NCBI GenBank assembly: GCA_977862235.1
Contig: OZ374565.1
Span: forward strand, 1,612,001-1,676,000
Length of the DNA: 64,000 nt
Direction of reading: 5' to 3'
Source: Dudresnaya verticillata
Lineage: Eukaryota
The notes under the pieces are model-generated. The model made no database searches and was not told where the DNA came from. It saw nothing but the letters and a program-made list of their open reading frames with translations. This document shows positions 7,261 through 36,247 of this stretch, one piece after another (position 1 is the first letter of the stretch; each line of letters starts with the position of its first letter). The position numbers were made by a program, and so were the translations under genes.

Positions 7261-7824
7261 GTAAAAACCGCTTGAGGGGAGCTACTGTTGACTAACAAAG
7301 GTCGGGCACTTGTGACACTGTACAAGCCGCGAGAAAGAGGCAACACAGCCATCCCGGCTCGCCGGGCTTGTGAGCCTTCACGATGAGGCCGTTGCATGTA
7401 CCCAACTCGTGGAGGGCATTAATGGAGCAGGAAAAGTCCTGGCTTAAGGGGTGGGGCAGTGGTTGTGGTGTGGGCAGGTGGGTGGAGAGTAGAGAAAGCG
7501 GAAGGCGAGCGGCGTGCGAGCGGGGCTTTATACCGGCGGGTGGGATGCGGGTGGTGGCGTTAGGAAGCAGGCGGGCGGGTATTGCCGGGTGGCGGGCAGT
7601 GCGGCGTGTGTGGTGGCGGACGGGAGTTGGGGCCATGGCGGCGGGGGTGGCTGTTTGTGAATCAAAAGGGCGGAGCAGTGGCAGACGTGATGCGTGGCTG
7701 ATGACTGACGGTTTGTCGATGGCGGCGGTGATGCGTACGTGCGTGTGCGTGTGTAGGTGTGTGGGCGTATGCCCTTCACGTGGGGCGCGTTGGGGCGCCA
7801 ACCTCCCCCCTCGTCCAGTTCGCT

Positions 7825-7873
7825 AAGTGTTGATGCGTAGGCATCAACACTTGATGCGTAGGCATCAACACTT
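7825..7873. repeat. Perfect 12-bp hairpin with a 21-bp tandem duplication
   Basis: AAGTGTTGATGC-GTAG-GCATCAACACTT, with TTGATGCGTAGGCATCAACAC present twice. Confidence 0.85.
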
Positions 7874-8887
7874 GGGGAGCTCCCCGTTAGAAGTTTGTAA
7901 GCCCAAAACGGTTTTTGGACATGGTCGTGCGATAATGTCGGAGCCGTCACCATACGGAGGTCACCAAACCACATGAACAACGGCTAATTACGATTGCAAG
8001 CGCATGGCTACTGCCCATGAGGCGGAGATCCTGATTCTTGTGCATCATCTAACTATAATGCCTGCCTTATTCTTTTTTTCGAGAGATGACAACGCACGTG
8101 TCTATTAACTGTAGGTATAGTAAGCGTCTGTAGAACACCTGGATTTGTGTTTGTGCTTCCTCTCCCACACGAACTTGTGGCTTCTCTCTCATGCGAATAC
8201 GCACGAGACGAACCAGAGTGCAAACATGCCTATTCGTTCCAGAAACTTGTGACGTGGGACGGTTGAAGTGGAGCGAGGAGCAAGTGCTCTCCGCAGTGGT
8301 ATTGTAAACTGAAGTTAACCTTCATAAATGAAAACGCAATTTCATGACTGAGCCACATACTTTGAACTGACTGCAGATACTGGTTGCGAACTTTGTGCGA
8401 GTGCTATTGCTCAGAGGGAAAGAATAGCGAGATTGACCTGTTGGCATCACCTTGTAAGGCAATGGTTCAATGCCGGTCCCTGGTGCAGTCTGGAGCTTAT
8501 TGAACGAGAATGAGCCATCAAGGATTCAAGCCATCAAGAAGGATTCAGCGTGTCAGTACGAACAAAGCGAGTCTCGAGAAAAGAACAATAAAGTGCACCG
8601 GCACTGCAGGGCCTACAGATCATCTCTAGAAGTGTCGCTGCCAGCTGTATTGCGATCGCCAACAGTCATGAGGTTCTCCTCGTGGTCACCTAATGCATGA
8701 AGACAGATAAAGACCGCCGCGCTTGGCACATACCCACTTCGCAAGATCTTCCTCATGAATTGTGCGTCCCTCTCGACGGTGCATGTACAAGCGGTCGACC
8801 AGCTCCCTCTCGATGACGTCCAGCACGTCGGCACAGGCCAGGGAAATGGTTTTTGCACTCGCGCTTGCACTCTAGACTGCTGACTGC

Positions 8888-9538
8888 TGTGGTGAAGTGA
8901 GATTCGGCATCCGAAACGGTGGAAATGCATATAGTGTGGCCTGAACCGTTGTGGGATTTTTGCACGTGTATCCGTGTCCGTTTTGGGTGCATTGTTGTGT
9001 GCTGGCGTACATTGCTGTGTAGCAGTGGAGCGCACCAACCGAAGCGGAGTATTTGTAGTATTTATTCTTTATTTTTAGTGAGTATCTGTACAGTGTGTAG
9101 AGTAGTGCGCCAGCCAATGAGAATGCTGCGCATGTCCGTGTTGGAGATTGGGACCAGCAGGGCCGATTCCACCATGGGTCCAGACCACTAGGGTCTGGAC
9201 CTCACGGACCAGACCGCTCGGTGCCACCCTGACTTGTATATCAGGGCGGCACCGCAGCGGCTCCTATGGTAAACGGGTAAGCAACCTTAGCCCAATCCTT
9301 TACGGTTTTCCCCGCGCCGAGCCCGTTGCGGTCTACCACCACCACCGTTACGGAGTCCGTTCCGGCACTTGTACCACCCCCTTGTCTGTTGCTTCCCAAT
9401 ATCCGTCTCGGTTAGCCGCTCGCTGTTCTCCCGTCTCGGTGCGAACTGCTCTACCACCCCGTAGAGGTAGTGTTGCTCTCGTCCGTTAAGGAAAGTCAGG
9501 CCAGCTGTCCGTCTCGGAGTTCGTGGGTTTTCACTACA
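8888..9538 (+). repeat. 5' LTR
   Basis: Direct repeat of 17401-18051; about six substitutions seen by eye (~99% identical). Confidence 0.95.
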
Positions 9539-9548
9539 CCACATCTTT

Positions 9549-9561
9549 TGGTCTCCCGAGC
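9549..9561 (+). other. Putative primer-binding site
   Basis: TGGTCTCCCGAGC lies 10 nt after the LTR. The TGG start is complementary to tRNA CCA, and the motif resembles the complement of a tRNA-Tyr-type 3' end (GGGAGACCA). Confidence 0.45.
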
Positions 9562-9691
9562 TAGAACACCGTCACGGTTGGAAGAAACAGCCGTCGAACT
9601 CCGCTACGGTAGGAATTCGGCTGTACCGCCAACCCGTTACGGAATATTGGATAGACAAGCAAGAACAACCGTTGTGTTCCGTTAAGGTATC

Positions 9692-12170
9692 ATGCAGAAC
9701 GAAGAACACGCAGACCCTCCCGTTACGGAACCTAAAGCGGGTGACACTACCCCCGCTGCGCGCAGTTTGCGCAGTGAAGGAGGTGAAATCCGTTCCGGAG
9801 TGGAGAACCCAGAAGACATCCTAAAGGGTGCTGCTGGTAAGGCTCCCCGGTCCCATGTCGGATCAGACGCCTCGAAGACAGCAGCTCCGCAACCCAAGCC
9901 GGAATCCCATCGGGTCCACTGGGTCCTGTCGGAGGTCCTTTCTAGGGCGTTAGAGCATCTCCGATTGGAAGTACAACCTGGAATGGTAAAAGAGGTGGAG
10001 ATATCCCTCTCGGGAACTGTTCCGTCTTTGGTTAATTCCTATCTGGAGCAGCACCTTCCTCGGATAGTGCAAGCTTTGATCCTACAGGAAAAGGTGGCCG
10101 CCGAGCTCGAGAGCCAGATTGCTCCCGGCATGGCAAGGCCTCCCGCTACGGAAGCTTTTACTGAGCAACCACCGTTACGGAATGACTTCCCGGTCGAGGG
10201 AAGAACGCAGCAGCCGCAACAATCCCCCGTTATGGGATTACAGCCGGGCACAGTACCCTCTGGGCCACTGCCACCGGCTCCCGTAACGGGTTCTCAACAT
10301 CAACAAGCCCCTACGGGACCAACACACACTCAGCCACCGTTACGGTATTCTCCTGGACACGTAGATGTGCCTACGCCAAGGCGCTATCAGCAAGAGCGCT
10401 ATACCGTTCCGGCTCGATCAGGTGGAGGCAGCGACCATCTCAGCGATGCGTCCAGCTCACCCCATCCGAGTCGGAGGACCGGTCGAGGTCGGCATAAACG
10501 AGATGCCCGACACTCCCGCTCTGACCCTCCCCGTCGGTCGCACATGGGCGACCACACCCAGCGACGACGCCGCCAATCCGGTACGGAATCCAATGAGAGC
10601 AGCTCAGAATATCCAACACCGCCGTCGCAAGAGGAGAAACAGAAGATCGCGGAAACGCGAAAAATGGCATGACTCCTCTACCTCTACGGATTCAGACTCA
10701 GAGAGTTCTTCCGTAACGGATAGAGAGAATAGGCACCGCGCCAGAAAACACGGTGCCAAATCCGGAAAGGTTAAGGTAATCCGGCCACTACATGACAAGT
10801 TTGTCAAGTCGCTGGACTACCGCACCTACCGATTGGATAAGAGGAGTAAGACCTACGGCTCCAAGTTCTCACAGAACATGAGCCGTATACGGAAGAAACT
10901 CGACGTCCAAATGTCGTCCCATACATTCTATGGGACGGACCCTATTACCGTCTTGGGATTTCTCGCTAAGTTCCGTGACGGTTGTAACATCAACGGCATC
11001 GCCGAAGGGGTTGCCGTCTGGTGCTTCCAGTTTTTCCTTAAAGGACATGCCGAAGCCCTTCTACAGGCTAGGCTTGCTGGAGGTACCATGGCGGTTGACG
11101 TGGAGCAGTCCGAGATGCTCCGCACATATCCCGAGGTGGTGAACTTTTTATTGAGAACCTACGCTACGGATGAAGTGCTTGCTGAAGCCTATACGGATGT
11201 CAGCAACTTCAGGCAAACATCCGCCATGACGGAAGAGCAGTTCTCGAACCAGCTCTGGGCCAAGGCTCTCCGTTGCGGTACAGTATTTTCCGATCGGGCA
11301 TTGAAGTCACTGTTCGTTGAAGGACTCCTACCGGGTACTCGTCAACAGATGAGAAATTATCTAGCGACGCATTCCCAGTTGGATTACCAGGCCATCACTC
11401 GCTATGCGACTGGCCTGGGTCAGTCCCATCGGGCAGCTCGACGCCAAACCGTTCCGGCTCACGTCTTTGATGGGCACACTAAAGCGCGCCCGTCTAAGGT
11501 GTTGTCGCTGGATTCCGTATCGGATGTATACTATGAGCCGCAAGGGAATCTTTCCGCTACGGATAATCAAGTGCTAGCCGTCGAGGGAGGCCACGGTGCC
11601 GCTACGGGTACGAGCACGGGGGTTACCTTTTCTACCACGTACTCCTCGCCCCCGCAAAGCGTCCACCCTACTCCGCCCAGGATGCCTCGCGCGCAAGGTC
11701 CCCCCTATGGTGGATCTCGCCCGGCTCCTGGCCCCCAACAGCAGCCGGGTCACCGTTACGGAAATAATGCCCACGATGGGCGAGGACAGCAGCAACAAGC
11801 ACCTCCGCTACGGGATGAGTCGGATCCTCGGGTCCGACGCCTTTACGGAAGTGGTAACTGTCGCATCTGCCTTTCGTCAGAGCACGTTGTTTGCCTATGG
11901 ATACAAGACTCCGATCGGGTTAGGCTTATGGAAGAGCGCGAGCGCAACTTCCAGAAGCACTACCCTGTAGGTCGCAGGTTCGTAGTAGGAACCAGTTCGA
12001 ATCCGCAAGGGAATCGGGGCAGACCGCAAACGCCCCCTCCCCAACGGAATGCCCCGATACTATCGGTGGAGGACCATGACGGAGTGGAACTCGCAGAATT
12101 GCGCGAGCCCATGGAGGCGGATCCGACTGGTGCAACCTTGAATTCGGAAAACTCAAGGGGGGATGCGTAA
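9692..12170 (+). pseudogene. gag: Gypsy gag (frameshifted near 10610-10670)
   Basis: Capsid-like region (FYGTDPITVLGFLAKF, FRQTSAMTEEQF, FVEGLLP), degenerate knuckle CRICLSSEHVVC and the SEN end motif. It is spread over two overlapping ORFs, 9692-10672 and 10365-12170. Confidence 0.8.
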
Positions 12171-15100
12171 GGGCGCCGCCATCCCCGCCTCACGGCGTTC
12201 CACCTCTCGCGAGTGTGGACCCGCCAGGGGATCGGCGAGATACCGTTACGGAACTCCCATTGGCTTATCAGACTAATGATACTATCTTCTTTATGCAACA
12301 TCAAAATTACAAGATGCAAATTACCGTGGGACGGACAGATAGCGTGATGCTTCCTTTAATCTCCGTCTTGGACTCTGGCGCTGGGCCCAATCTCATTAGT
12401 GCCAGGCGCCTTCCGCGCCAATGGCTCCCACTCATACGCCCAGCAGCCAGTCCTCCATTACGGGATGCGTCTAATCGCGCTGTACGCCCTCTTGGTCAGA
12501 TCCAACTTTTCGTCCGTATCGGAGAGCTCCGTGCTCGCGTTCATTTTCTAGTGGTCGCGAACTTGGCGGCTCCCTGTATTCTGGGAACTACCTTCATCGA
12601 CCGCCACGTGAAGGAAATCCTCCCTCCGTTACGGAAAGTTGTTTTTCATCATTACCCACCGGTATCCCTTGTCGGTCAAGCCAAAATTCCGAAGACGGGA
12701 ATCACTGCCACCCTACAGCCCTCACCTCTCTCTACCGCCACGGTTTCTCAGAAAATTCGTTTAGCAAAATCTACCCTTATTCCCCCTATGACTCAAACCA
12801 CCGTAACGGTTAATACCCCCACGGGTGGGTTATGTTTTCTACAAAATCATCCTAAGCCGGCTTTTAAACACCTTACGTTAATGGCTAATGGTATTATGGA
12901 TGTTGTACCTAACAAACCGTTTCGGATCTGGGTCTCCAATTTTTCTAACAAGCCGTACGGTTACCCAAATCTACTGTCGTGGGCCTCGCTACTGCTGCCC
13001 CTTCTGCTATTTTTACCGTTGACGATATACCTCCATTTAAGGAGGGGGGAGGAATTATTCAATCATTTAATTCTAACCCTACCTCCGAAAAGGCCAGCAG
13101 CAACTCCCCTCACGACAAGGAAATAAGCAAACCCGTAACGGAAAATGCAAATATTACCGACTGGAAGGATCAAGTCCAGATTGGCACAGAAGAAGCATCG
13201 CTCCGCAAACGGATTTTAACCCTACTCGAGGAATATAAGTCGATGTGGAGTGGCGATCTTGGCAACATTACAGCTGCCAAGCACCGCATCGAGTTAACTC
13301 CCGGAACGAAGCCAGTATATCAAGCCCCATACCGTGCCGGACATAAGCAGCGAGATCTCGAAAAGACAGAGATTGATCGCATGCTTTCCGCTAAGGTAAT
13401 TGAACCAGCCTCATCGGAGTGGGCCAGCCCCGTGGTTTTCGTTCCAAAAAAGGACGGCACCATGCGGTTCTGTGTTGACTATAGAAGGCTCAATTCCGTA
13501 ACGGTTAGGGACTCATATCCCTTGCCCAGGATGGATGAGTGCATAGATTCCCTTGGGGAAGCTACTGTATTTACCACCCTGGATTGCAATAGCGGATATT
13601 GGCAAGTCGAGATTCCGGAAGAGGAAAGGGACAAAACTACCTTCACTAGCCATTTTGGCTTATACAGTTTTCGGAGAATGCCATTCGGATTGAAAAATGC
13701 ACCGGCAACCTTCCAACGGGCAGTGGATATAATCCTTTCTACGGTTAAATGGCAATTTGCCCTCGTCTACCTAGATGATGTAATTGTCTACTCAAAAACC
13801 GTTACGGAACATTTCCACCACTTGAAGGAAGTCCTTACGCTTTTACGATCCGCTGGGGTAACGTTGAAATTGTCAAAGTGTGACTTCTTCAACGCGTCTG
13901 TACAATACCTGGGGTATGTTATCCGTCCCGGATAATTAGAAGTGGATAATCGGAATATCCAATCCGTTAAGGTCGCGAAGCCGCCGACTAACCAAACGGA
14001 ATTGCGATCCTTCTTGGGAATGTGCAACGTGTATCGTCGCTTTGTACCCAACTTCGCTCGGATTTCAGCACCGCTAAATAAGAAAACCGGCAAGGGCTCA
14101 CCCTTTGAGTTTGGAATATTATCCGATACGGAATATGAAGCCTTCGAGGAACTGAAGAGACGCCTTATCTCTCCACCTATATTGGCTCTACCCCGTCACG
14201 GATATAAATATACGTTGGACACTGACGCATGTGACCACCAAGTCGGCTGTGTCCTTCTGCAGGAACAACCGAATGGCGATCACCTCCCTATCGGATATTG
14301 GAGCCGAAGCCTCACCGATGCGGAGAAAAATTATACGACAACCGAAAAGGAATGCTTAGCCGTGGTCTGGAGCATGTTAACACTCCGACCCTACCTTTAC
14401 GGTGATAAGTTTATTCTCCGAACGGATCACGATGCTCTGCGGTGGATCCTGAACCTCGCAGACTCATCTGGCCGCCTAGCCAGGTGGAGGCTCCGCCTAT
14501 CGGAATTTGAATTCGAGGTGCAATACCGTCCTGGAATTAAGCATCAACTCGCCGATGGGATGTCGCGACTCCGAACGGATGGCGGTGACGATAGACCTTT
14601 GGATGAAGAGATACCCTGCTTTGTCGCCGAAAACACCGTCGACGGATTATATGAGCATGGAGTATATTTAACCGATTGGGCCACATCACAAGAAACCGCT
14701 ACGGAAAATAACGTAATATGCGCCGTGGAGCCCGCCAGTGGGAGTGCATCCGCCTCCCCTAGCCCGACGCAATACCGTCACGGTTTACTGTAATCCAAGA
14801 ATCCGACGTTAAGGATGAGACAATTACCAGGGAGGAGTTCCTTGAAGCGCAAGCCCGAGACCCTTTCTGTCGTCTCAAAGCCGATACGGTAGGCTCCCCT
14901 GGATCACAGTTTGACTATGGTCGTAACGGATTCTTGGTACGCAAGTCCCAATTGGATGGTGCTCTGCAGAAGGTGGTGCCAAGCGAACTCCGTAGACGGG
15001 TATTGTATTTATCCCACTACACCCTGATGTCGGGTCACCCAGGCGGAATTAAGATGTATTATACACTCCGACAGGATTATTATTGGCCTCATATGGCCAA

Positions 15101-16460
15101 CGATGTATTTGAATCCGTTCGGACGTGTCGCTCCTGCGTGAAGACAAAGGGAACCCGCTTTCGGAACCAAAGATTTATGAAGCTTTTCCCCGCTAGCGGA
15201 CCTTTGGAGTTTGTCGCTATCGACATTGTCGGGCCACTTCCGAAGACAAAAAGGGGTTATGTCTACGTTTTGGTAATAACCGATCGGTTTTCTAAGCTGA
15301 CGCGCTGTATTCCGTTACGGACAACAACAGCCGTTGTGGTGGCTAACGCCTTTCTGGACTTTTGGGTGTACGCCTACGGCGCACCCCAATTTGTCCTAAC
15401 CGATAACGGACCGCAGTTTACTGCTAACTTCTTCGACGCGGTGTGTTCCTTACTCGGAGTCAGGCACCTGCTCACCGCTGCCTACCATCCGCAGACAAAT
15501 GGGCAAGCTGAGCGATTTAATAAGGCAATCGCTCAGCGTTTGCGCCATTACGTTGAGGATCATCACTCCGATTGGGATCTGTACCTGCTACCGTTGACTT
15601 ATGCGTACAACATGCAGGTACACCGTGTTACGGAAACAACGCCATTTGATTTGGTGCTGACACGCCGCCCATCGGATATCGTTGTACGAGGGGCTCCTGT
15701 CGAGCATCAAGAAACCGTTACGGAAGGGCGTATGACCCCGGTGCTACAGAAGCGGAACACCATGCGCCGTTTACGGTATGCGCTCCAGACAGCGCGCACT
15801 AAGCAAACAGTGGCTCAGCAAAAAGCCAAGGCACTGTTTGACCGTAAGGTGCGCTTTAGGCCTATAATCCGTAACGGAGATCAAGTCTACGTCGACAGGC
15901 CGCCCCATAACTTGCGGCCTGCCGAACGCCGTGAACGGGACCGATTGGAAGGCAAGCCGGATGATGTAGGCGAGGTGGCTCAGGAAATGAAGAAACTCCT
16001 TCCGAGAGCCACGGGGCCTTATGAAGTGGAATCCGCAACGGAACATGTTGTTACAATCCGAAAGGAAGGGGTATTGACCCCCGTAAGTATCGATCGCATC
16101 ACGAAGGTTCCGATCGGAGTTGCGGTTCAGCCGGCACCCTTGATAGTGCCGCCTGTCACGCCATCAACCGTCTACGGAGAAGTAGTGCTACATCCAGAAG
16201 GTACTACAGTAGTACCTCCTTCTGAAGGTACTACTCCTTCCGCAACGGAACCACTGCAAGCCGATACGGAATATGTGATCGACAAGATTGTCGGTCACCG
16301 CGACGAACCTACTGGGATGACGTACAAAGTCCGCTGGTATGGTTACCCTCCGGATCAGGATACCTACGAACCCGCCGAAGTTTCACCGCTTCCGCGGCAC
16401 TCTTCCGTCACGGAACTCGCTCTGGACACCTCAGCAGAGCCGTTACGGTGTTCGTCGTAG
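12146..16460 (+). pseudogene. pol: Gypsy pol: protease, RT, RNase H, integrase, chromodomain
   Basis: Motifs LDSGAG; RFCVDYRRLN, MPFGLKNAPATFQ, YLDD; DTDAC..GCVLLQ, TDH; HHCC plus DIVGP/TDNG/GQAE; EYVIDKIVGHR...YKVRWYGY. Lesions: frameshifts near 12955 and 14770, and a TAA at 13933. Confidence 0.95.
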
Positions 16461-17387
16461 CCATTCTGGGAGGGGCACGCCTTTTTCTTGCGATGAGCGG
16501 CCGCCCTAGCACGTTTGGGCCAAGAACGGCCCCTTCCGCGACGGTACAGGAAAATTCCTCGGTCTCATTATTCTTCTCAGAGTCCCGGGGTATATATTAA
16601 TATTGATGTTAATATTAATATTTTCAATATATTATTATATTAAAAATAATATATTAACACCCGTCGCGGGTTGGGTTCATCTCAAGAGGGAGAGGTTGGT
16701 GGTGTGTCTCATAAGGGCAGAAGTGAAGGTATTCGCCTGTAACCGCTACGGATTCCTGAAACGCGCCGCCTGCGCCGGTTTGTGGCGTACCTAGCCCCCC
16801 AACTTCTCGCCACCCAAGTCGGAACAACTTCCGTCAGGAGGTTGCGGGTGTGAAGTACCGTCATCCGATCGGAGTACGAATCGTCCGTTGTGGATATGGG
16901 AGCGTAATCGATGGCGTGTTCGAGCAGACCGTCGGGGAAACTTATTCCGGTACGGTGAGAGCAACACTCTCCAAGAGTGTTTGCTCCTTTACGTGTGGTA
17001 GGACCCCCATGTCGGATTTTTGCAAATGAGGCTGTCTGTGAGGTGCCTGGATTGCAATCCCGTTACGGTGAATCTGGCGTCTGCAGCGCTGACACACTGG
17101 AGGAACCCGTTGCGCATGTTTAATGAGGCAGAAGACTGGCGACCAGCCTAGGCAAGAAATCCTTGCGGATGGCGCGCGACACTCGCGTCAAGCGCGTTTT
17201 GGTTATTCTCCGTGACGGAAGTCCTGGTATTGGAGGTGCGTGGGGTATCCCAACGCATCGATGCAAACCGTGACGGCAGTAGGGACGTTGATGAGAGACC
17301 TGGAAAAGCTTTTCGAATCCGTTGACGGTGCGTCGGACCCAAGCCGCAACTTCTTGAAGGTGGGCGCACGAGGACGTGGCGCCATTT

Positions 17388-17398
17388 AAGGAGGGGGG
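17388..17398 (+). other. Polypurine tract
   Basis: AAGGAGGGGGG two bases before the 3' LTR. Confidence 0.85.
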
Positions 17399-17400
17399 TC

Positions 17401-18051
17401 TGTGGTGAAGTGAGATTCGGCATCCGAAACGGTGGAAATGCATATAGTGTGGCCTGAACCGTTGTGGGATTTGTGCACGTGTATCCGTGTCGGTTTTGGG
17501 TGCATTGTTGTGTGCTGGCGTACATTGCTGTGTAGCAGTGGAGCGCACCAACCGAAGCGGAGTATTTGTAGTATTTATTCTTTATTTTTAGTGAGTATCT
17601 GTACAGTGTGTAGAGTAGCGCGCCAGCCAATGAGAATGCTGCGCATGTCCGTGTCGGAGATTGGGACCAGCAGGGCCGATTCCACCATGGGTCCAGACCA
17701 CTAGGGTCTGGACCTCACGGACCGGACCGCTCGGTACCACCCTGACTTGTATATCAGGGCGGCACCGCAGCGGCTCCTATGGTAAACGGGTAAGCAACCT
17801 TAGCCCAATCCTTTACGGTTTTCCCCGCGCCGAGCCCGTTGCGGTCTACCACCACCACCGTTACGGAGTCCGTTCCGGCACTTGTACCACCCCCTTGTCT
17901 GTTGCTTCCCAATATCCGTCTCGGTTAGCCGCTCGCTGTTCTCCCGTCTCGGTGCGAACTGCTCTACCACCCCGTAGAGGTAGTGTTGCTCTCGTCCGTT
18001 AAGGAAAGTCAGGCCAGCTGTCCGTCTCGGAGTTCGTGGGTTTTCACTACA
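17401..18051 (+). repeat. 3' LTR
   Basis: Direct repeat of 8888-9538. Confidence 0.95.
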
Positions 18052-19692
18052 CTGCCCCTCCTGCGGAATCAGACGCAGCTTGCCAAGAAACTCGACCAAG
18101 TCGGTTGACTTCATCCAGCACGCGTGCTGCAACGTCTGCTTGCAGAGGGATTCAACTAGATCTAGCACTTGCAGATGCATGAGGTCGGAGGGCTGCAGCT
18201 CGTTGATGGCAGCGGCGGCGGACCTTGATACCGAGTTGCAGGTCTCGCAGCAGATGTACTTGACGTCAGATGGGTTTCCGCTTGCGTCCATTGCCCTCGT
18301 TGAGAGCGCATTGGTTCGGTGCGGGAGAAGGAAGAGGAGCGCGATGGTGGTGATATCAATTGGTGTTGTGAGTGACATTTTTGGACAGGCCAGGTGTGGA
18401 GACAGGGCAGAAGTTTCTTGAGATGTGTTTCGGGGTGCTAGCCGAGATGGTTGCGGGTAAGAACAGAACAGTGCACCAGCGTCATAGTTGCAGGCGCGCG
18501 CAACAAGAGGTGACTGCCGCGGTTGCACGGCTGGGGGTGTGGTTGGACGTCAGGTCATAGGAGCAGGGTAAGAGCAGTACTGCACGTGGTGGGCTTTCCG
18601 GAAGCAGGACGGTAAGCAGGCAGGCAAACACAACGGCGGTATTACGCAGCGGAGAGGAAGGGGAGTGGAGGAGGATACCGTGAGCGATGGATTCGCGGAG
18701 CGGGAGTCGTCGCGGCGAGGGTAAGGGCGTTTGTGAGGCAGTGTGTTGTGGCAGGCGTATTTGTGTCCACATTCTGGGCATTCAGGTCGTGAGCTCGCAG
18801 CGCCGAGGCCAGATAGATTGTGGAGTTTGCGGGCTCTCAGGACCAGTTCCCCGATACTGATATTGCATTTTGGGCTTCTGCGTTGCCGTGAAGCACAATA
18901 TCTGTTCTCATAGCAATGTGACTTGGCCGCATTCAGAAGCTGTAAAGGTGTTGACGGCGGTCCAATGGAAATACCCTTTTACAAGCTTATTCAATATCAT
19001 TGGACAGAAAATTTATACAGGTTTTTCAGCGCGCAATTTGCCACATCAAATGAACAGCTATTTGGCCCGGCGCTCTCGCCCCACCTGTTCCCTGATACTG
19101 ATATTGCACCCACAGGTGTTGACACCTCCCACCCCCGAGAACCTGTTCCTGGTAAATTGACCGCCGCGCCCCCCGCTGGCACGCCGCTGGCAACGGTGTG
19201 CCAATACTCACCGAAACAGTGTGTGGCATGCTATTTTACTCGCAGTATCAGCACCTGGCCAGGCCGGCCTCAACTTCAAAGCCCGGCCAAGTCGCCTGGG
19301 ACAACGAGCAGCATGCCCTAATTGACTTTGTTACATCTCGCCCTGCAGGTCCGCTGAAACCTGCATTCTACCAATTCCAACTGTACGACCTGTGCTAAGA
19401 ATAGTTCTGATGGAGACTGTCCACACCCGTTGAACAATCCACGTGACCTCCCGTGCCATCTCAGAATTTGCGGCACATCCATGTCGTACTCCCGCCGTCC
19501 AGTGTGTCGAAAGCCCGTATGGTGTCAGTCGAAAACGGCACCCTGCAAACATGAGCTGGGGACGTAAAGAATTTCTTGCGGAAGGTTTTCTGAACAGAAT
19601 CTGGACAACTCGTCGGACATGCAGTACCCCTTTCCGTACTCTTTCAAGGAGAGCGGTTTTCACGTGCACAGTGAGTCTTTCTCTCGCACACC

Positions 19693-22600
19693 ATGTCGAA
19701 GCGCAAGAAGCGGAGCAGGGGGTCAAGTGAGCCCTTGAGGAAGGATGACATGGCACAGGCACTGTTTGGAGATGTCATGGAGGGGTCTACCAACATTCGA
19801 ATAGACCCCAGGTCCTGTGTTCCGATGACTGATATAAGGGACAGCTCGAGATCCGGTGTTGAGAGGCTCAAGAAGATTTTCAGGGGTGGTGCGACGAGGA
19901 GCGCTAACTACAACAACGGGTACATTGCCGGTTCTGATGCGCCCATACTGGCTCGCCTAACAGGTCCCTTCAGGAGTTTCATTTTTGAGTTTCTACCAGC
20001 TAAACGGAATGCGGATGGGACAGAGTATACAGAGAAACAGGTGAAAGAAGAGGCCTCCAGTCGGTCGGAGTGGTTCGGAGTTGTTGATGGCATGCATCGA
20101 CTTATCGCCATTATGGAGCTAATCGATGAAGACCGGGAGACATGGAAGGGGTTTGCTTTGACTGCCACTGTGCTTAAAGGGGGGCACAACATCCAGATTC
20201 TGAAGCAACTGGCTCGTCATCAGAACAGAAAGCACGACTCCAGCTTTTTTGTAGAGACCACGTTTTACGATCAGATATGCGGTCTGAGGAAAGAGGCAGA
20301 CCGTCTCGAAGCCAGTAATGGGAAGATTCCGACTGCGACGGCAGTTGCCGAAGCATATGATGGATGCAGTCACCTATCGGAAAACACTATCAAACAGACA
20401 TCGGCAACCGTTCTTCGTCTTGACCGTCGCGTTATCGATGTAGTTGGGAAGATAGTGAAGGAGGAGGTCCCTGAACTAGCAACTATGCAACTGTTGACTG
20501 CTTCCGGAAAGGCCATAGACTCAAATGTTGCGATGCAGAATCTGGATTGCAGAGTATACAGACGCTTCATTCACGTCAGTTCCATCAAGTCTTCCAAGGC
20601 CTTTATGAATGCAGGCAGCTCTGACAACGGCATTACTGTGCAAATAGCTACCCTGTACAGGCTTCGAGAGGTGTCAAGGACACACAATTTCAAACCTGTT
20701 TCGGCCAAACACACACAAGAGCAATTCGTGAAAGCTTCAGCCGCCCTTTCCGAGACTCGGAAATTTGAAGCGATGAGGGAGAGGACAGAATGGCCGTCAG
20801 GCATGAGTACATTAAGAGAAAACCTGTTACGCACTACGAAGCTGGACGTCGAGGTCATCATGAATCGAGGTAATGACCGTACACTGTTGAAAACAATAGT
20901 TGAGATGTACAGAGAGTGTTGTCCGGAAGAGGCCCCAGTGAAGTTGCAGAAGTACAAAGATCTGCAAACTGTGATGGATTCGACAGAAGGCAGACGTGAT
21001 GACGCTGTCATGACCCGCCCGGGTTACAATGAATGTGGAGCAAAAGATTCTGACGGTCAACAGAATTTGGACTGCACGTTGTCACCGCAGGTGGACGCTA
21101 CCGGAATCTCTAACGACGACGAGGTTTTGGACTTAGTAACATCAACCAATTCGAAAAGGGAAGAAGGTCGCGAACCAGCAGAATCTGGACAGGCACCGGT
21201 CCAGAACGCAGACCCTACAGCTGCATGTGCAGCCAAAGACCATTCTGTACCGGAAAAGAGTCCCACAGACCACATTATATCAACTGTGTCATCAAAGCAG
21301 TCAGTTCGCCTCAACATGGGTACTAAGCCTGTGCCGGTGGAGGACGGATCGCTTTCTGTTCCAATAGATTATCTTGCGGAAATGAAACTGACATGCTTTC
21401 AGATGACATGGCAGAGCTACGAAAGTACCGTAAGGAAGGAAGGTGACAAACGATTCGATTTAATCCTCACAGATCCACCATACGGTACACCGAAATCGCA
21501 GTCTAAGTCGGGGAGGTCATTCGATAATTACCTCAGCGAGGAAGACATTAAGAAGATAGTTGAGTTCTCGAGGCGCGTACTTGTAGCAGGGGGGTGGTTG
21601 TTTGTTTTCACGTCATTCCTAAACTTCAGTGTATTCCACGATGCTCTGAAGAAGGCACAATTCATGTGCCCAGCATAACCATTCGTATTCTCCAAAGACC
21701 CCAAGACCATGCAGGAACATCGGGGGAGCGATATGCCCCAGAACTGTGTGGAAATAGCCGTCATGGCGCGTGCCCCAGGTCAGCATGGCGGAGGGTTCTC
21801 GCTCGACCTTAGGAGCGAGTATAACTGCATTACCTCCCCAGAAAAGCGGAAATTCGCGTGCATGTCCTCTCTACCAACACCGAAACACAAGTTGCTACGC
21901 CCAGGCACCAAGTCCCCAGTTCTGGTCGAAGAGAAGTCTCCCGAAGTACTTGTGGAGATAATGACAACATTCTGTCCGGAGGGCGGGTCAGTTCTGGATA
22001 TGCCCAGCGGAACCATGACGACTGGGATTGCAGCTGTCAGAACAGATCGTCGGTGTACACTAATCGAATCACAGGTCGAAACTTTCAAGCTGGGGGCTGA
22101 ACGTTTGCGTAGGCTTGCCACGGAAGCATATGAAATGAAGACAGGTCGTAAACGCTTGGAATCATGTGCTCATGACGAACTGAATGGTATCGGTGAGGCA
22201 GCAAGAGGTAGTGTTGTCAAAACAGATTCTGTTCAACCAACAAACCATTCCGTAACGAGGAAGGGACCTCAAATGTCCCATCTGACGACACCGTCCGAGC
22301 ACGTATTGGATGACCCCGAAGAGAGTATCGAGAAGCACGGCAGGAGTGAAGACATAGTTGTAGGAAGTGTGGAGCTGAATGAAAAGTACAGGAGAAGGAA
22401 AACACCTGAACCTTGTGCAATGCCCAAGGCCGGAGACAGAGTCACGCTTCTTGCAGATGATAAGGAAGTGGGGGAGGCCGTGTTGCATCCTGAAAAGACT
22501 CCAGGAGGGAACTGGAATGAACGCGTGCACGGCCACGATCTGTCAGAATCCGCCAAACCAGGGGAGCATCTTGTGGTCGTCTACAGTTTGAAGGTCATGG

Positions 22601-22725
22601 CGGAGTATGAGCTAAGTTCGTATTTGTATATATTCAAGGGAGTAGAGGACCCTCCTGCCAATCTCAAGGGCCTAAAAAGCTTGTTGTTCTCGTGGGACTT
22701 GCACAACATGAAGAAGATTGGGTAG
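19693..22725 (+). pseudogene. ParB-like/HTH + beta-class N6A/N4C DNA methyltransferase fusion (~1010 codons, one in-frame TAA at 21676-21678)
   Basis: N-terminal basic NLS-like MSKRKKR; ParB/Srx-like IR..S..GVERL...G...PIL...VVDGMHRLIA; FDLILTDPPYG (motif IV); RRVLVAGG; EKS..VL..IM..F...GGSVLDMPSGTMTTG.AA...R....IE (motif I region). ORFs 19693 and 21709 are in the same frame. Confidence 0.88.
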
Positions 22726-23233: not shown

Positions 23234-23755
23234 ATGGATGACTTGATTCTGGATGTGGAAAAGCTGTACAACGCCGTTAAACGTCGGATGGAGGAAGATC
23301 TTAATCGTGAGGCACGAAAATGGACGCACCAAAGCCCTAGCAGTGACGATGACATTCTGGACAACCACAATGACCTGGATCGTGCCCAAATGGCTTGGGA
23401 ATCATCACAGCAATTTTACGCAGACAAGACGATGATGGAGCAATCTCACCATCAGAAAGCTTTGGAAAAGTTGTACAGGTTGTTGCTGAAGAAAATCTTT
23501 CTCGTGGGAAGGGGCAAGTACGTACACGGTGCAGCCCATGCTATATGCTTCGCGATCGTCGAAACGCTGCACAGGGGCGGAGAGAACGCGTATCAACTGG
23601 ACCGCTACATACGTCTGCTTTGCACAAAATTCTACATGTCCAACAGCCGCGCAATGAAACCGGAGGTGAGGATGTGCATCATGAGGAGCCTGAACAATGA
23701 AGTGTCTAGTTGTGAAGGGCTGTATATGCGGAAGCATAATAGCAGCGATTGCTAA
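23234..23755 (+). CDS. Hypothetical helical protein (173 aa), transposon cargo
   Basis: ATG in CCATGG context and an uninterrupted protein-like ORF just inside the right TIR. I recognise no domain. Confidence 0.55.
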   Translation: MDDLILDVEKLYNAVKRRMEEDLNREARKWTHQSPSSDDDILDNHNDLDRAQMAWESSQQFYADKTMMEQSHHQKALEKLYRLLLKKIFLVGRGKYVHGAAHAICFAIVETLHRGGENAYQLDRYIRLLCTKFYMSNSRAMKPEVRMCIMRSLNNEVSSCEGLYMRKHNSSDC

Positions 23756-23945
23756 CTTTAGAGATAGAAAAGTGGTGGCCTTCTCCCATGAGCACAGCAG
23801 TGCGCTTCATTCCATTTGGCGGCCTACAATCGGGGATGTGCCCCATTGAAGTATGGCATGGTCCTCAGCTGCGGCGCAATAAACGCGGCGCAGACAACAG
23901 AATGCAATGAGGTCAGGCTGGCGTTGTGCAGAACCGCAAGGGAAA

Positions 23946-25081
23946 TCGACGCCTGTAGCGTCAGTCTACGCCACAAGTTAAGTCCGAACCGCGGGTGCGC
24001 AAGTGGCTTAGCTACCTGGAAGGGTACCAGGTCGGACGGGTAGTGGGCCCAGTTGTGAGGACGGGTCAGAATGGGGGTGACCATGCCGCTCGAGAGCGGG
24101 GTAGGGGTGAGGGAGGCGTGTCGGGGGACTGCTGGGAAGGGCCGACCATGCGTTCGAATGCAGCAACTTGATGTGGGCGTGTCAGAATGCGGCCGGGCGC
24201 GGTGCGCAGGACCGCGGGGAAGGGTGAGGGAGGCGTGTCGGGGGACTGCTGGGAAGGGCTGACCATGCGCCCGAATGCAGCAGCTTGATGTGGACGTGTG
24301 AGATTGCGGCCGGGCGCGGTGCGCAGGAACGCGGGGAAGGGTGAGGGAGGCGTGTAGGGGGACTGCTGGGCGGGGCTGAGCATGCGTCAGAATGCGGCAA
24401 CGTGATGTGGACGTGTGAGATTGCGGCCCGGCGCGGCGAGCGGGGAGGGGTGACGGCGAGGTGTCGGTGAACGGCAGGGAGCGTGAGACAGAGTGCGGTC
24501 ACAGGCCGGACTGGGGCGGGGAGCGGCACTACGGGTCTGGGAGGGGGTGGGGAAGCGCGCCTCATTACGCGCAACGCAGAAGCAGAGCGCGTGCGCACGC
24601 GCCAGAATGCGGAATGTGTGTTCCAGTAGCAGCACCAGGAAGGGTGATGGTGGGAGTGGCTGTCGGACGTGAGGAGGTGGCCGAGCGCGCGTCGGAATGC
24701 CGTGGGAAGCCAAGTCCGAGCACGTCGGAATGCGGTGAGAAGCCAAGTCCGAGCGCGTCGGAATGCGGCGGGAAGTCGCCAGAATGCGGTGTGCGGTCGG
24801 GGGGCGGGGGTGCGGGCGGCGGGGCGGGCCAGAATCAATTTCTGGAGAATTTTTAATTGGAACTTTTCGGAAAATCACAACTTTCGGGAACTTTCGACCC
24901 CGGGGGGGCCCATATGCCGGAGCCCATAACTGCAAAACTATTTGCGTTTGCTCCGATCTGTTTGCACCACTATTCTCAGGGTAGCGCCCCCTTTCCAACG
25001 CGCTATCAAACTCCGGGATTCAAGGACCCTCAAAAAATTCTGTTCTGTTTTGGAAATTCTGTAGCCGGCGAAATTAGTGTT
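23946..25081 (-). repeat. Right long TIR (~1135 bp) with internal tandem expansions
   Basis: Inverted copy of the left TIR. A 117-bp unit occurs three times (starts ~24105, 24222, 24339) versus once on the left, and a ~33-bp unit three times versus twice. Confidence 0.9.
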
Positions 25082-25800
25082 ACGTCCAGAGCTGACGAGA
25101 GATCCTCGCAGTCCTTGGAGGTGTTGGGCGAAGAACCGTTTCCGGGAACGAGGAGGTAATCGTCTATCCATTGGAGGACGCGGCAATACAATGCAGAGCG
25201 CATATACGGAGTCAGCGGACTTAGGAGATGGCAAAACAAGTAGGGTGACCTCGTCCAACCGAAAGGCAATGCAATGCAGCGGTAGAAACAGCCGTCGTAG
25301 TGAAACAAGAACCAATCCCATATGCGTGAGTGGAGTCGGAAATGTCGATATCCACTCTTCCAGTCGAACGACAGCATATGGTCCCCTTGAACAATGCAGG
25401 AAGCAAAGGAGCTGAGCGATTCCATCATAACCGACTTCTTGTCCAAATGCGATGACTGGCGTTGTAGGTTGATAATGAATCGATCTTTGCCGGAACTCCA
25501 TTCCACAAATGCGAAGGACACGTAACAGCCTTTCTGCACCTTCTAATTCGCGTACGCTTCGGACACGCGTTCGTATCTACCAACTTTGCATCCTTCCTCC
25601 AGATCCGACTTGGCAAAACGCATATCCACCTTTGAATGTGGTACCGCAGGCAAGATAGCACCAGCCGTGAAGGATCGCTGGGGAGGATCCCAAATACCAA
25701 ATGTTAACATCCGAATCACGAAATAGGATGCCCAAATCCCGGCCTACTCGTTGGACTGGCGTTGGGTGGATGAACATTGGGCCTGTAACCAGGTTTCCGG
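25082..25800 (-). pseudogene. DIRS reverse transcriptase (5' part), frameshifted
   Basis: KDRFIINL, SFDWKSGYRHF, ALPFGWTRSPYLF and WIDDYL are DIRS-type RT motifs. Confidence 0.9.
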
Positions 25801-26791: not shown

Positions 26792-26921
26792 AACATAAAA
26801 ACAGGAGGCATGGCATGAATCGACGGGGGCTTCCAGTCTGAAAAGAAATCAGGGCTTCCACCTTCCATTTTTTTTCTGACTGGAGCCCCCGTCGATTCAT
26901 ACCATGCCTCCTGTTTTTGTT
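26792..26921. repeat. Long imperfect hairpin (~50-bp arms, ~20-nt loop)
   Basis: AAAAACAGGAGGCATGGCATGAATCGACGGGG...CCAGTC pairs with GACTGG...CCCCGTCGATTCATACCATGCCTCCTGTTTTT. Confidence 0.85.
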
Positions 26922-31470: not shown

Positions 31471-33591
31471 CTAGTTCCAACTGAGCTGGCTGTACCTTAC
31501 CTCGTCTGTCCTCAGATTTCGATACTGCTTCTTCACCCCACTCCCAAACAACCCGTGCAGCAACAGGTTGTGGAAAAGTGCCTCTCCCACATCGCACACA
31601 TCAACCCACGGCCACGGTTTCCAGAAAGCCCACAGCTGCACCGCACCCACGAACAGCCATGCCCCAAGCGTAAACTTGATCAAAATGATGTTAATTGTCA
31701 GGAAAAACATTATCCGGAGCGGCCTATACCACACGTACTCCAACCTCATAGGCTTACACGTGATCAAAATCCCATCATCAGTAACCTCCGCCTGTTGGTC
31801 TTCGTCCGGGTCCACCCGATGTACCAGGTGGGGAGGCAGCAGTGTTTTATCCCACAGCCCCGTCGCCTCTGCCACCGCTGTCACGTGTCCCTCGCGCATA
31901 GTCGAGAAACGCGCCAGATCCACTACCAGCGTGCGCTTGTGCATCCGGTCATCGCTCAACAGTGTCATGATCCCAGCAACGTGCCCGGTCGTCGATGCGT
32001 ACAGGCTCATCGACACCCTATGGTCCAGAAAGTCCATGATTGCCTTGCGATCCACCACATTGCAGCTGCCGGGCAATATCCCCACCCATTCCAGCACCCC
32101 GTCCCACCCTGGTGCTTTGCGGTAATCCATCGACCGCTGCATGCTCATGTCCAAGTAGTTTTCCCCCACCAGGGCATCTGATCGGCACGTGATCGACTCC
32201 CAGAACACGATGGTGTAAAACTCCCGAAAACGAATCCGAAACTGCTCCCCCTTCATCATCATGCTACTGTGCCGCTTGCTGTACGCGCCCTCAGCAATCG
32301 TCCGTAGCGCCCATGCCTTCCACGCAGAAGCTGCCCGCTGTGTGCGCATATCCTCATTTGCCTCACGGACGCTCACACTGTCAGTCAATAGTGCCGTCGC
32401 AAGTGCAAGCGTCGTAGCCCGCAGATATATCCCATCGCCACCGATACGGGCCAGCCCGTTGCCCAACCTATTGTAAATGGAGGATCCATAGTAGATCGTG
32501 CTGTCGAACTTCCGCAACATGTAGTCGTCAACCAACAATCCACGACCAGCAACCCCGAGAACCGTCTCTAGCTTGCGCCAAAAGTCGGTTCCAAAGTACT
32601 TCTCATTGAGGTCGTATACTCTCACCACGGGGCACACCGCATAGGCAAACAGACCAAAATCCTCCCAGTCGACCATGCTGTAGAATTCGCTCACTTTTTT
32701 GAAATCCTTGCCCATGTTCACGAGACGATCAATCCAGATACGTACGTGGTGGGTCCCTGCAGTATTTGCGAGGGCGCGGCACGAGCCCACCATCTGGCTC
32801 CACCGAAAATCGTCCAGAAAGTCAGAGGTCATGCTGACCTCGAACTGCTGCAGCACTGACTCCTCCTCCGGGCTACCATCCTGCGTGAGTACTTTCATGC
32901 GTCGGGTCAGCTTGATCGACTGGCCTTTGTACGAAAGCGCAACTAGAGTGACGTTTTTGTCCACTGTATCGGGCTGGGTGTCGTACGGCCGGCCGGCTCG
33001 CAGCTCGTTGCGGAAGGCCTCCCAGTCAGCAGTGCTGCGCACGTCGATGGCGCGGCTATAGCCCCTTGCGTATGCATCGCGGGCCTTCTGGGCGGCGACT
33101 GGCCCCTTGCGTTCGAAGACGTCTTTGAAGACATAGTCTGCCGAGTTTTTGATAGTAGAGAGCTGGTCTATGAGGGTGAGATCGCACTCGTTGTTCACAA
33201 TGCCCGAAAAGTTGGTATGACCGCAGACGCGGGCGTAGAAGGCATTGGTACCGGAGGCACTGAGGTCGGCGGCCAGAGCTGGGCTGGCGTTGAACTTGCG
33301 GATTGCATTCTCGAAACGCTGTTGTGGGTGATACTTGTACTTCGGGCTGATTCGGCCGTAGATCTTGGTGTATTGATTCTCGGCAAACTGCCCCACGAAG
33401 GAGACGGAATCGCGCATGGAGTTGGACCAGCGGAAGTTGGAACCCTTCCGGGTTTCGACGAGCAACATGTAGAGGTTCATGAGCTTGATGTATACATCTG
33501 ATATTGTGAAGTGCGACTCCGCTTGGCTTGCTTGCTTCGAACTAGCCTGCGGCGGCGTGGTGGCCTGCGGCGGAGGACTTGGCTGCTGCAT
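31471..33591 (-). CDS. 706-aa single-exon protein with HET-like domain and C-terminal hydrophobic segments
   Basis: Long intact ORF. Motifs LVALSYK, VRIWIDRL and DFWRKLE parallel the HET-domain ALSY.W / WID..CI / R.W..QE motifs. The C-terminal IMFFLTINIILIKFTLGAWLFVGAVQLW is hydrophobic. The gene call is firm; the domain call is tentative. Confidence 0.8.
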   Translation of the reverse strand: MQQPSPPPQATTPPQASSKQASQAESHFTISDVYIKLMNLYMLLVETRKGSNFRWSNSMRDSVSFVGQFAENQYTKIYGRISPKYKYHPQQRFENAIRKFNASPALAADLSASGTNAFYARVCGHTNFSGIVNNECDLTLIDQLSTIKNSADYVFKDVFERKGPVAAQKARDAYARGYSRAIDVRSTADWEAFRNELRAGRPYDTQPDTVDKNVTLVALSYKGQSIKLTRRMKVLTQDGSPEEESVLQQFEVSMTSDFLDDFRWSQMVGSCRALANTAGTHHVRIWIDRLVNMGKDFKKVSEFYSMVDWEDFGLFAYAVCPVVRVYDLNEKYFGTDFWRKLETVLGVAGRGLLVDDYMLRKFDSTIYYGSSIYNRLGNGLARIGGDGIYLRATTLALATALLTDSVSVREANEDMRTQRAASAWKAWALRTIAEGAYSKRHSSMMMKGEQFRIRFREFYTIVFWESITCRSDALVGENYLDMSMQRSMDYRKAPGWDGVLEWVGILPGSCNVVDRKAIMDFLDHRVSMSLYASTTGHVAGIMTLLSDDRMHKRTLVVDLARFSTMREGHVTAVAEATGLWDKTLLPPHLVHRVDPDEDQQAEVTDDGILITCKPMRLEYVWYRPLRIMFFLTINIILIKFTLGAWLFVGAVQLWAFWKPWPWVDVCDVGEALFHNLLLHGLFGSGVKKQYRNLRTDEVRYSQLSWN

Positions 33592-36247
33592 GCTTGGGGT
33601 AGAAGTTTTGAATCTTTCGTTGGTTTCGTGACCTGGTAGTGGGGGTGGCTGGGCGGTGGTGAGACGGCAAGAAGAGAAGGACTGTGAAGTCGGGTGGTGC
33701 AGCTAAAGAAATTGTGGGCGAAGTGTTGCGTTGCAGGTTGCACAGTGGTGGAGCAGCGCCTAGCGCTGGTGTCTATATGTATATACTCAGCTGTTCGCGA
33801 TCGATGCAGATGCGCAAGCGGCGAAGTATGGTGAGCCCTTGTCGGAAGGGCAACAGCACGGACATTGGAGAGGTTCAGACATTCAAAGAAAATGGGTGCC
33901 AAGCGGTTGATGATGTAACAGATGAGATTGCTACTACTGTAGACGGGGCTCCGCGGATGTTGAGCGTGAGTGGAAGAAGATGCCCTTGTACCGGCAGCTC
34001 AAGGGCGGGTTTTTGAGTTTGGTTAGTCATAAATAAGCGAATGCGGAAGGGATCGTCAGAGGGGGAGAAGCCCTGGGTATGGATCAAAGCGTCGACTCAA
34101 GCGCAGTAGATATACACCGGGACAGCACACAACAATGCAGTCGGCGTGCCGCGCGGTGTGGGTGGCAGTTTGGGCCGCAGGCTGTGCATCTCCGACATGC
34201 GGGCAACTGTGCGCGCGACAGGGGAGGCTGGACAAGTTGGCTTAGTGCCTCGGCGGGCCAAGCGAGGGCTCTTGACGACGCTTGTCGAAGAAGACGGCGG
34301 CGCGGCCCCTTCTTGACAACAAGCTGTCAGCGCGGCGGAGCACGTTCTGCGCAACGCGGCGAGTGCCAACTCGGTGGTGTGTGAACAAGTCGCACCCGTC
34401 GCGACCGGCATCGCGATTCATACGACGCCTGAATTTGGCGGCCCGGGGCCGCGGTCAGGGTTAGTGTTGTACCCAAGCATGCTCATGTTGTGAGTGTAGG
34501 GCAGCATACGGATGCAGCTATATGCATACGTGAGTGGTGGAATGCTGCGCTGGAAATGCCGATCACGAATAAGGCAATCTGAGGCATTGACCGTGTGGTC
34601 AGCTGCAGCTGTAGATCTCGGCGGAGAGCTAGGGGTAGTTGGGTCCTGTCTTGCCGGTGAAGGGTGTCACAATGGTATCGTATGGTATGAGGTACAGTCA
34701 CAACAGTACAGTGTAGAACGTTTCAGGTGGCAGGCCAATAGGGCTTGTACACTTGTCGCAACCCGGCTGGGCCACCAAGTCGGTGCCTTTGCACCTCGGG
34801 TGACCTCGCGAGGTACCCGGGGTTATCGGCGTGCGCCGCAAGTCTAGACTGTCATTTTGTATAAGTCCCCCGACTACCAGGCTAGGGATAGGGCACGATC
34901 GTGACGATTCCTTTTCTCCAGTTTCTCTACCAAAACGCAGCAAACAAAGGTGTATCATAATGCGTGACATGCGTTTTCCAGCTCTGCGTCGGGCCAACCT
35001 TTTGTCCATGGACAAAAACCTTTTGTCCAATTTTACTTGTCGCTCTGGTATTCGCCGCCGCGCTGCAAGCCCGCTCCTGGGATTGGCCACCGAGTGCCAA
35101 GATGGTGCTCCTGATTGGACGCCCTGGGTGGCACGCTTCCTTGCAGCGGCCTATGCAGCGGGAATCGCCGCAGCGCTGGGGGCGCCCCTGCCCTCCGGGG
35201 ACCGGTCCGCCCCATCGAGACCCGGGGGCCAGGAACCGGACCGTGGCCCTCGGTCCGGGCCGGTGTTGACGCGGGGTGCCACGCGCCACCGCCGGGCTCT
35301 TACCACCAGGCGCACAGCATGTACACGTCGCCACGCCACGCTCTCCAGCAATGCATTGGTGCGCGCTACTGGGGATACCCACGGACAACAGGGGGACATC
35401 CTCATCTGCATTCCTATTCGCTTATCCGGGACATACACTCCCCTTCCCTCCCGCGGGCCACCCAGCCATGCATGTTCCCGCCAGCCGGTCGTGCCTTCTC
35501 CCTCCCTCCCCCTCCCCCCCGCCATGCCTCGCTCCCGCTCCAGCCAGCTCATCCCTCCCTGGGCTCTCCACCCCAGCTATACCCACTACCACCGCCATCT
35601 AGCGCTCTCACCAACCATGCCCGCTACCACTGTAACGACAAACACCGCCATCTAGCGCTCCCACCAGCCATGCCTGCTACCATCGCCCTCTAGCGCTCTC
35701 GCCCCGTCACCCTGCTCAGTGCACACCTCGCCCTAACTATTGTGGCTTCTTCCACACACTGTCACCGCTATGCTACTCCTCTCCTTCGCAGTAAGAACAC
35801 CCGCTATGCCCCACCACCAACTGCCGACTTCACCATGATGCTGAAAATACTAAGTCTTTTCACTTACAATGAGGTGTGCTGCCAGCCTTCATCGATGGAG
35901 ACGAAACATCGCGCATACCCTACACGTTCACTAACTTACAAGCTACGACATTCGCAAACCCCGATGAACTTCAAGACACACACGAATAGCATTTAACAAC
36001 ATGGCAGTAATGCCAAAGATTCTCATACTAGCAACCTTTTCCTAACAATCGCCTACACTTCACTTCATGAATAGTACATATTGTATTGAGCGGTAGCGGA
36101 GATAATGACTTATCTTGCGAAACAATGCTGAGTCCAAAACTGTTCACAGGTCGAAATTGACCTTCTTGTTCTCAATTTCCAAGCGCAAACGACCGCGGCG
36201 GAAAAAGTCAATCTCTCCTTCTCTCGGTTCCCAGATTTCAACGGCGG

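Follow-up and report, generated by a model that had tools for sequence, protein, structure and literature searches.

A DNA transposon of 23.8 kb carrying a gene that joins a ParB-like part and a predicted helix-turn-helix (HTH) to an amino-DNA-methyltransferase (MTase) was found in a 64,000-nt stretch of Dudresnaya verticillata DNA (GCA_977862235.1, contig OZ374565.1, positions 1,612,001–1,676,000; hereafter the window). The copy in the window is decayed. In other elements the MTase gene is, as we strongly infer from contigs matched in size and source, linked to a transposase gene. A transposon-borne ParB-like/amino-MTase gene is of a kind already published for Ectocarpus; the size of the family, a domain common to the MTase and the transposase (domain X) and subclades lacking the DPP[YF] motif are additions that were not found in the literature searched.

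Structure of the Element and Its Flanks

The limits of the element (1308–25081, with AAC ends) were placed by AACACTAATTTCG, which is read inward at each end, and by ACGT on either flank (1304–1307 and 25082–25085), taken as a 4-bp target-site duplication. ACGT is palindromic, so a duplication of 2 or 3 bp fits too; the 4-bp reading agrees with the Ectocarpus element Sola1-1_Ec32. The left terminal inverted repeat (TIR; 1308–2187, + strand) starts with AACACT and contains seven copies of CCGCATTC, and the right TIR (23930–25081, − strand) contains subrepeats of 117 nt and 33 nt and ends with AGTGTT. The two arms were 92% identical over 758 nt and reached about 880 nt. A chromodomain Gypsy LTR retrotransposon (8888–18051, + strand) with 99% identical LTRs and a CTGC duplication is nested in the element, which measures 14,606 nt once this insertion is subtracted. 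Sixteen copies of CCGCATTC were counted in the 14.6-kb element core, none in the Gypsy element and one in the 40 kb outside; one copy, at 18927, lies upstream of the MTase gene. Both TIRs were found to be densely packed with repeated motifs that include adenines. Word-depletion scans of the element gave no convincing methylation target word (strongest z −3.0, likewise low outside). A 173-codon ORF (23234–23755, + strand) without a Pfam match is a possible third gene of the element.

The element interrupts a single reverse-transcriptase frame: the right flank, which gave a Pfam match to RVT_1 (E 2e-6), ends with SSALDV, and the left flank picks up VLFNRLG. This frame is presumably DIRS-like. 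Contigs aligned to the region showed low depth over the MTase gene, and among those listed none spanned the element and no empty site was seen. A single DNA run (X1, share 0.06) and no RNA run was listed as containing the sequence, which says nothing about expression.

Other features were also observed in the window. Cys-containing frames on either side of the Gypsy element (18056–18340 and 8613–8887, both − strand) possibly represent an element gene split by it, and a pair of exact 21-nt direct repeats making a palindrome lies between the MTase and transposase genes (7817–7881). A fragment at 63880–63934 (− strand) resembles the end of the Gypsy LTR (about 91–94%), and short MITE-like inverted-repeat elements are present at 26797–26918 and 51201–51262 (arms of 35 nt and 26 nt). 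A long Cys-rich ORF (36161–37672, + strand, with 38423–40692) has YYDNGC/DRFHY-type motifs, which to us recall a KDZ (Kyakuja-Dileera-Zisupton) transposase, and no Pfam match. Three paralogous ORFs (46498–47184, 51284–51964, and 54700–55383, + strand) begin in the manner of signal peptides and contain an SP-rich linker and two repeats rich in Cys, Lys and Arg; the one scanned against Pfam gave nothing convincing. Two long ORFs at 31471–33702 and 57800–59485 (− strand; 743 and 561 aa from stop to stop) had no Pfam match.

The MTase Gene and Its Decay

The MTase gene (19693–22725, + strand; 1,010 codons) is interrupted by a single stop (TAA, codon 662, 21676–21678). Base composition predicts about 52 stops in this interval and the remaining five frames have 18–58, which rules out a chance open frame. 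A bacterial contaminant was likewise ruled out, since the gene lies inside the TIRs together with the nested chromodomain Gypsy element. Thus, the reading in the initial annotation of one frame within TIRs, broken only once, was borne out, and the NLS-like start described there is present in the sequence.

With the stop read through as X, the protein matched the Pfam family N6_N4_Mtase (PF01555) at 36.1 bits (E 9e-9), above the gathering cut-off of 26.7 bits, and the MTase match expected of the stop-repaired protein was thereby obtained; either half of the frame, taken singly, matched weakly, and six homologues scored 42.7–57.8 bits. Within this domain (21457–22089, + strand), DPPY (21472–21483, residue 594) precedes the SAM-binding motif I (LDMPSGT, 21994–22014, residue 768), which confirms the beta order proposed earlier. 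The closest solved relatives by sequence are also beta-class: PDB 8URK, named "Methyltransferase" (E 3e-10), DpnA (E 2e-8), and, weakly, CcrM.

The N-terminal part (19750–20420, + strand), which includes DGMHR (20086–20100), had been assigned to a ParB/Srx-type domain. Structure comparisons support a ParB/Srx-like nucleotide-binding fold for this predicted region, and Pfam gave no match to PF02195 or any other ParB family; only weak DndB matches were found in Pfam scans of this protein and its relatives. An AlphaFold model of residues 20–430 built from nine sequences was of low confidence (pLDDT 57.5). With this model, 21 of the 23 top rows listed by Foldseek against the PDB were of Noc/ParB/KorB/Srx type, none of them at E ≤ 1e-3 (best E 3e-3), and the search against BFVD gave four viral matches at E ≤ 1e-3, two named ParB-type and two unnamed (best E 3e-4). 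The ESM Atlas placed the region with phage ParB/Srx clusters (0.92). Features of the canonical ParB CTPase clamp were not found: the protein has DG[MQ]HR instead of a GxRR-type motif, and no ParB_N profile match. The HTH suggested at PTATAVAEAY (20329–20358) coincides in location with two predicted helices (pLDDT about 60–80), and it stands as a prediction only.

The copy in the window is decayed. At the position of its stop, all eight close homologues have Y or H, and where it has DMPSGT in motif I all eight have D-x-Y-[AG]-G-T. The divergence of motif I in the initial annotation is thus real, but peculiar to this copy. Of 159 columns with no other variation, 18 deviate in this copy, compared to 1.4–7.8% for intact relatives.

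The Transposase and Its Probable Superfamily

A broken DUF7869 transposase gene (2272–5901, − strand; Pfam E 1e-45) that contains stops, an insert of about 730 nt (2857–3590) and no fewer than three frameshifts was found inside the TIRs, head-to-head with the MTase gene and on the opposite strand. Intact relatives showed 49–70% identity to it in conserved parts (tblastn). Acidic residues were kept in at least 95% of 121 transposase rows, which fits a DDD/E enzyme. The literature search for DUF7869 returned nothing.

The element, whose superfamily the initial annotation had left unnamed, likely belongs to the Sola1 group. The 4-bp target duplication, a Sola1 trait, is present as ACGT at both ends, the palindrome permitting other readings. 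The termini AACAC..GTGTT agree in three of five letters with AACCG..CGGTT of Sola1-1_Ec32, which speaks neither for nor against the assignment. The target preference AWWT/AWDT given for Sola1 in the accessible text of PMC3845634 was not matched at this single site, as ACGT retains the A..T without the inner W.

A conserved beta-rich domain forms the C-terminus of the transposase (2272–2520, − strand); in one relative it gave a weak BAH match (E 0.04), a possible chromatin reader. A DUF7869 transposase relative (P0088, 52%) was found filed in a Bacteroidota MAG and is probably eukaryotic DNA in the bin.

A Domain Common to Both Proteins

The last approximately 100 residues of the MTase (domain X; 22411–22719, + strand) matched the frameshifted N-terminus of the transposase of the same element (5609–5901, − strand) with 38% identity over 66 aa (E 1e-14); this domain had escaped the initial annotation. 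The model of domain X is a small beta-barrel (pLDDT 86), predicted to be SH3-like and of no named family: there was no Pfam match and no ESM Atlas name, and Foldseek gave nothing significant, the best matches (E 0.17) being SH3-like barrels such as KOW, PsaE and LSm. The domain may resemble the C-terminal domain of CACTA TnpA, a likeness that Pfam did not support. A domain X profile matched 10 of the 120 transposases listed (best 120 of 192) and 12 of 50 full-length MTase representatives. In all six MTase–transposase pairs it was present on one gene or on both: here both genes have it, in the 8748-nt pair the transposase alone does (P0030 with, P0002 without), and in four pairs the MTase alone.

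Probable Linkage of the MTase Gene to a Transposase

Close homologues of the MTase formed eight clusters, with 39–45% identity to the copy in the window where measured and about 40–63% mutual identity. The listed sequences of seven clusters are full length; for the eighth, full-length sequences occur among its members. Linkage was judged from matching contig sizes and sources, not from the DNA between the genes. For the MTase, 24 distinct contig sizes were available (in the case of one cluster, from the 15 listed of its 19 members), of which five under 3 kb were left out; for the transposase, the best 120 of 192 matches and the members of 10 clusters were used. Twelve of the 19 MTase contigs of at least 3 kb were equal in size to a transposase contig, and 10 of the 19 agreed in source as well; the remaining two size matches, from another source, were counted as chance. 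In a shifted-set control, 0 of 200,000 reached 6. Nine further transposase clusters compared with the MTase contigs added no match.

A transposase partner was matched for five of the eight MTase clusters, and the possibility of a one-off capture raised in the initial annotation was not upheld. No matched transposase was found for P0005, P0185 and P0184, the contigs of P0184 (4.3–4.4 kb) being too short for both genes. Distances between MTases and between transposases were correlated over six pairs (Mantel r 0.85, p 0.003; P0037 used in place of its cluster mate P0165), with one divergent pair weighing heavily. Shared ancestry alone would yield such a correlation, which therefore speaks for joint inheritance and not for function. 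In the transposase tree five partners fell within one 11-member clade and P0043 outside it; for the sister transposases P0034 and P0036 of the same clade (contigs of 8.6–12.7 kb) no MTase was matched. A search of metagenome, genome and viral collections for family members with context returned only prokaryotic and phage MTases of 22–32% identity.

The Wider Family and Loss of the Catalytic Motif

A profile search of 1.84 billion representatives gave 241 clusters at E<1e-30. At E<1e-10 there were 997, a set in which ordinary MTases are probably included. Among the best 150 matches, the ParB-like and MTase parts occurred together in 47 of the 48 listed proteins of at least 750 aa. All eight close homologues retain DPPY, DG[MQ]HR and D-x-Y-[AG]-G-T, so that a loss of SAM-binding residues in all copies, considered beforehand, did not hold.

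In the wider family, DPP[YF] was kept in only 20 of 56 full-length relatives (16 DPPY, 4 DPPF; the rows are not independent), and neither SPPY nor NPPY was found among the 56. Clades with EPPS/EPPP/RPPP or ALPS/AIP/QVPR in its place showed FastTree support of 0.99–1.00 and open frames of 660–1,190 aa; activity may persist in a few DLPY/DIPY variants. Most members of the clade containing the element of this study have DPP[YF]. The Asp of motif I was present in 54 and the acidic motif II in 52 of the 56 relatives, and D285 and R287 of a helical region, among the most conserved residues, in all 56. DGxHR was retained in 15 of 20 DPP[YF] proteins compared to 7 of 35 others. The absence of canonical DPP[YF] from 36 of 56 relatives weakens a purely enzymatic reading of the whole family.

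Relation to Known Systems

Published systems are compared here as described in the accessible parts of the sources cited. Sola1-1_Ec32 (PMC12477816) shares with the element AAC-starting ends and a 4-bp duplication (21.5 kb there, 23.8 kb here with Gypsy), and encodes a 1,104-aa protein with a ParB-like part and an N4C/N6A MTase. The gene for this protein and that for the transposase are on opposite strands, and the protein is proposed to bind the element that encodes it and to modify that DNA. Its accessory gene has the same layout as ours, likened by description and not by sequence. A precedent for a transposon-borne amino-MTase, which the initial annotation had anticipated, thus exists with the same layout and the same hypothesis. 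Sola1-1_Ec32 differs in its TIR (282 bp, compared to about 760–880 bp here); a domain in common with the transposase is not mentioned in the accessible text, and the supplement calls the gene "Ectocarpus specific". The same source cites Iyer 2011 for green algae.

In red algae, Plavaka PAG2/PAG3 (bioRxiv 10.1101/2025.02.11.637652) are also found on DNA transposons with a PF01555 methylase and a ParB-like domain, and self-modification is proposed for the Plavaka accessory genes. These domains are on separate genes (MTase with SET; ParB with 2OG oxygenase), in EnSpm/Mutator/Zisupton elements, and red-algal accessory genes are described there as moving between TE families. Membership in PAG2 was rejected, as the present family lacks SET: none was found in the 7 + 46 proteins scanned (46 relatives at E ≤ 0.001).

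The nearest matches outside the family include fusions of ParB_N and N6_N4_Mtase, and all 10 scanned had both domains at E<0.001. Phage fusions of this type, from ParB-terminase loci (PMC4738411), have these two domains in identical order and DPP[YF], in agreement with the bacterial/phage layout named in the initial annotation, but they differ in length (420–620 aa), in sequence (22–32% identity), in a GxRR-type ParB motif and in the absence of domain X. In a 31-row tree the family was monophyletic (100/100), and its placement beside the phage fusions was unsupported (53/82, long branches). From the architecture, a phage-type source of the MTase gene is likely. Membership in the clades of section 5 of PMC4738411 was rejected, its eukaryotic ParB-HTH fusions being Group-2 and unpermuted.

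LTR/DIRS retrotransposons carrying DAM (bioRxiv 10.64898/2026.05.21.726589) likewise place a prokaryote-type adenine MTase on a eukaryotic TE, and raised 6mA and transcription are reported for the DAM-carrying LTR elements. They differ in being retroelements with a Dam-type domain, and ParB, Sola and PF01555 are absent from the accessible text. The bdelloid N4CMT (PMC8885841) is also a eukaryotic beta-class PF01555 enzyme; it differs in being a host gene with SPPY and a chromodomain that writes 4mC and has no ParB. The literature searched, which excluded most subscription papers and Repbase Reports, contained no reference to a domain common to methylase and transposase or to catalytic loss in such a family, and no experimental test of such elements.

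Possible Function of the MTase Gene

For intact copies we put at about even chances a reading, drawn from sequence features, in which the protein, its ParB-like/HTH half bound to the DNA of its own element, would write 6mA there and thereby aid expression and escape from silencing or control the transposase. The loading site of the ParB-like fold and HTH would be a repeated motif of the element, for example CCGCATTC, the DPPY domain would methylate adenine near the loading site, domain X would hold methylase and transposase together at one site, and the methyl mark would benefit the element by escape from silencing or by regulation of the transposase. According to the accessible text of PMC8885841, bacterial 6mA enzymes typically have DPPY, and 4mC enzymes SPPY; DPPY in all eight close homologues and SPPY in none of the 56 relatives were counted for 6mA. 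Also taken in favour of the reading were the matched contigs, the correlated distances, the other motifs kept by the close homologues, the beta-class solved relatives, the phage fusions, the concentration of CCGCATTC in the element core, the Ectocarpus precedent and the DAM-carrying LTR elements. The broken state of this copy and the replacement of DPP[YF] in supported subclades with open frames were counted against self-marking, as were the MTase clusters and sister transposases with no matched partner, the position of P0043 in the transposase tree, the use of contig sizes as the basis for linkage, and the failure of any target word to stand out in the element. Besides, 6mA is reported to be lost from major multicellular lineages (bioRxiv 10.64898/2026.05.21.726589, in part), so a host reader of the mark may be absent, and the CCGCATTC-type repeats may simply be transposase sites.

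A tentative alternative, to which we give clearly less credence, is that binding is the selected function: the protein would coat or bridge element DNA through ParB-like loading, pair the ends and shield the element from silencing, and the MTase fold would be an optional catalyst or base-reading module. The 36 relatives without DPP[YF], which keep open frames, the motif I Asp and the acidic motif II, and the invariant D285 and R287 fit this reading, as do red-algal PAG3, which joins ParB to another enzyme (bioRxiv 10.1101/2025.02.11.637652), and the DIRS MTase domains described as inactive in the accessible part of PMC4738411. It is opposed by DPP[YF] in most of the element's own clade and DPPY in the eight close homologues, and the degenerate relatives may not be transposon-borne.

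Dam methylation controls IS10/Tn10. By analogy, an active enzyme could serve as a switch of transposition, with methylation of ends or promoter blocking the transposase until the DNA is hemimethylated after replication, or marking occupied DNA against re-insertion. The head-to-head genes, the dense adenine-containing motifs of both TIRs and the domain common to both proteins would suit such a switch, which we consider unlikely; the degenerate relatives, showing that catalysis can be given up, count against it. Still less probable is that the enzyme produces 4mC, or has single-stranded DNA or RNA as its substrate, and does not make 6mA in duplex DNA: PF01555 covers both activities and the solved relatives include the single-strand enzyme DpnA and MT-A70 proteins, but SPPY does not occur among the 56 relatives and the N4CMT structure was a non-significant match (E 0.23). 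That the gene rides along passively, or as a selfish cassette in its own right shuttling between transposons, with no service to the element, as the movement of red-algal accessory genes between TE families (bioRxiv 10.1101/2025.02.11.637652) and the sister transposases without a matched MTase might suggest, is the least probable of all, given the divergence correlated with the transposase, the shared domain X and the motifs kept across about 55% divergence.

Self-marking by intact copies remains the preferred reading. More speculatively, and with no more than a modest chance of being right, the family could be a two-protein machine in which a ParB-like sliding or loading methylase is coupled to the transposase through a beta-barrel on either partner, with some lineages writing element-specific 6mA and others having become a catalytically dead binder or reader. 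If true, this would be a chromatin system run by a transposon; its divergent members would number in the hundreds, and the hosts may themselves lack a 6mA system.

ParB/methylase genes in algal transposons have been noted twice, in passing. The present analysis supplies intact single-ORF relatives, a candidate target motif and DPP[YF]-less subclades for comparison, and suggests that the gene is not confined to one species but accompanies a single transposase lineage. If active, the element would represent a cut-and-paste transposon that writes a DNA mark of its own, as a counterpart of the plant VANDAL anti-silencing system, and its enzyme would possibly be a new sequence-targeted methylase for eukaryotic cells.
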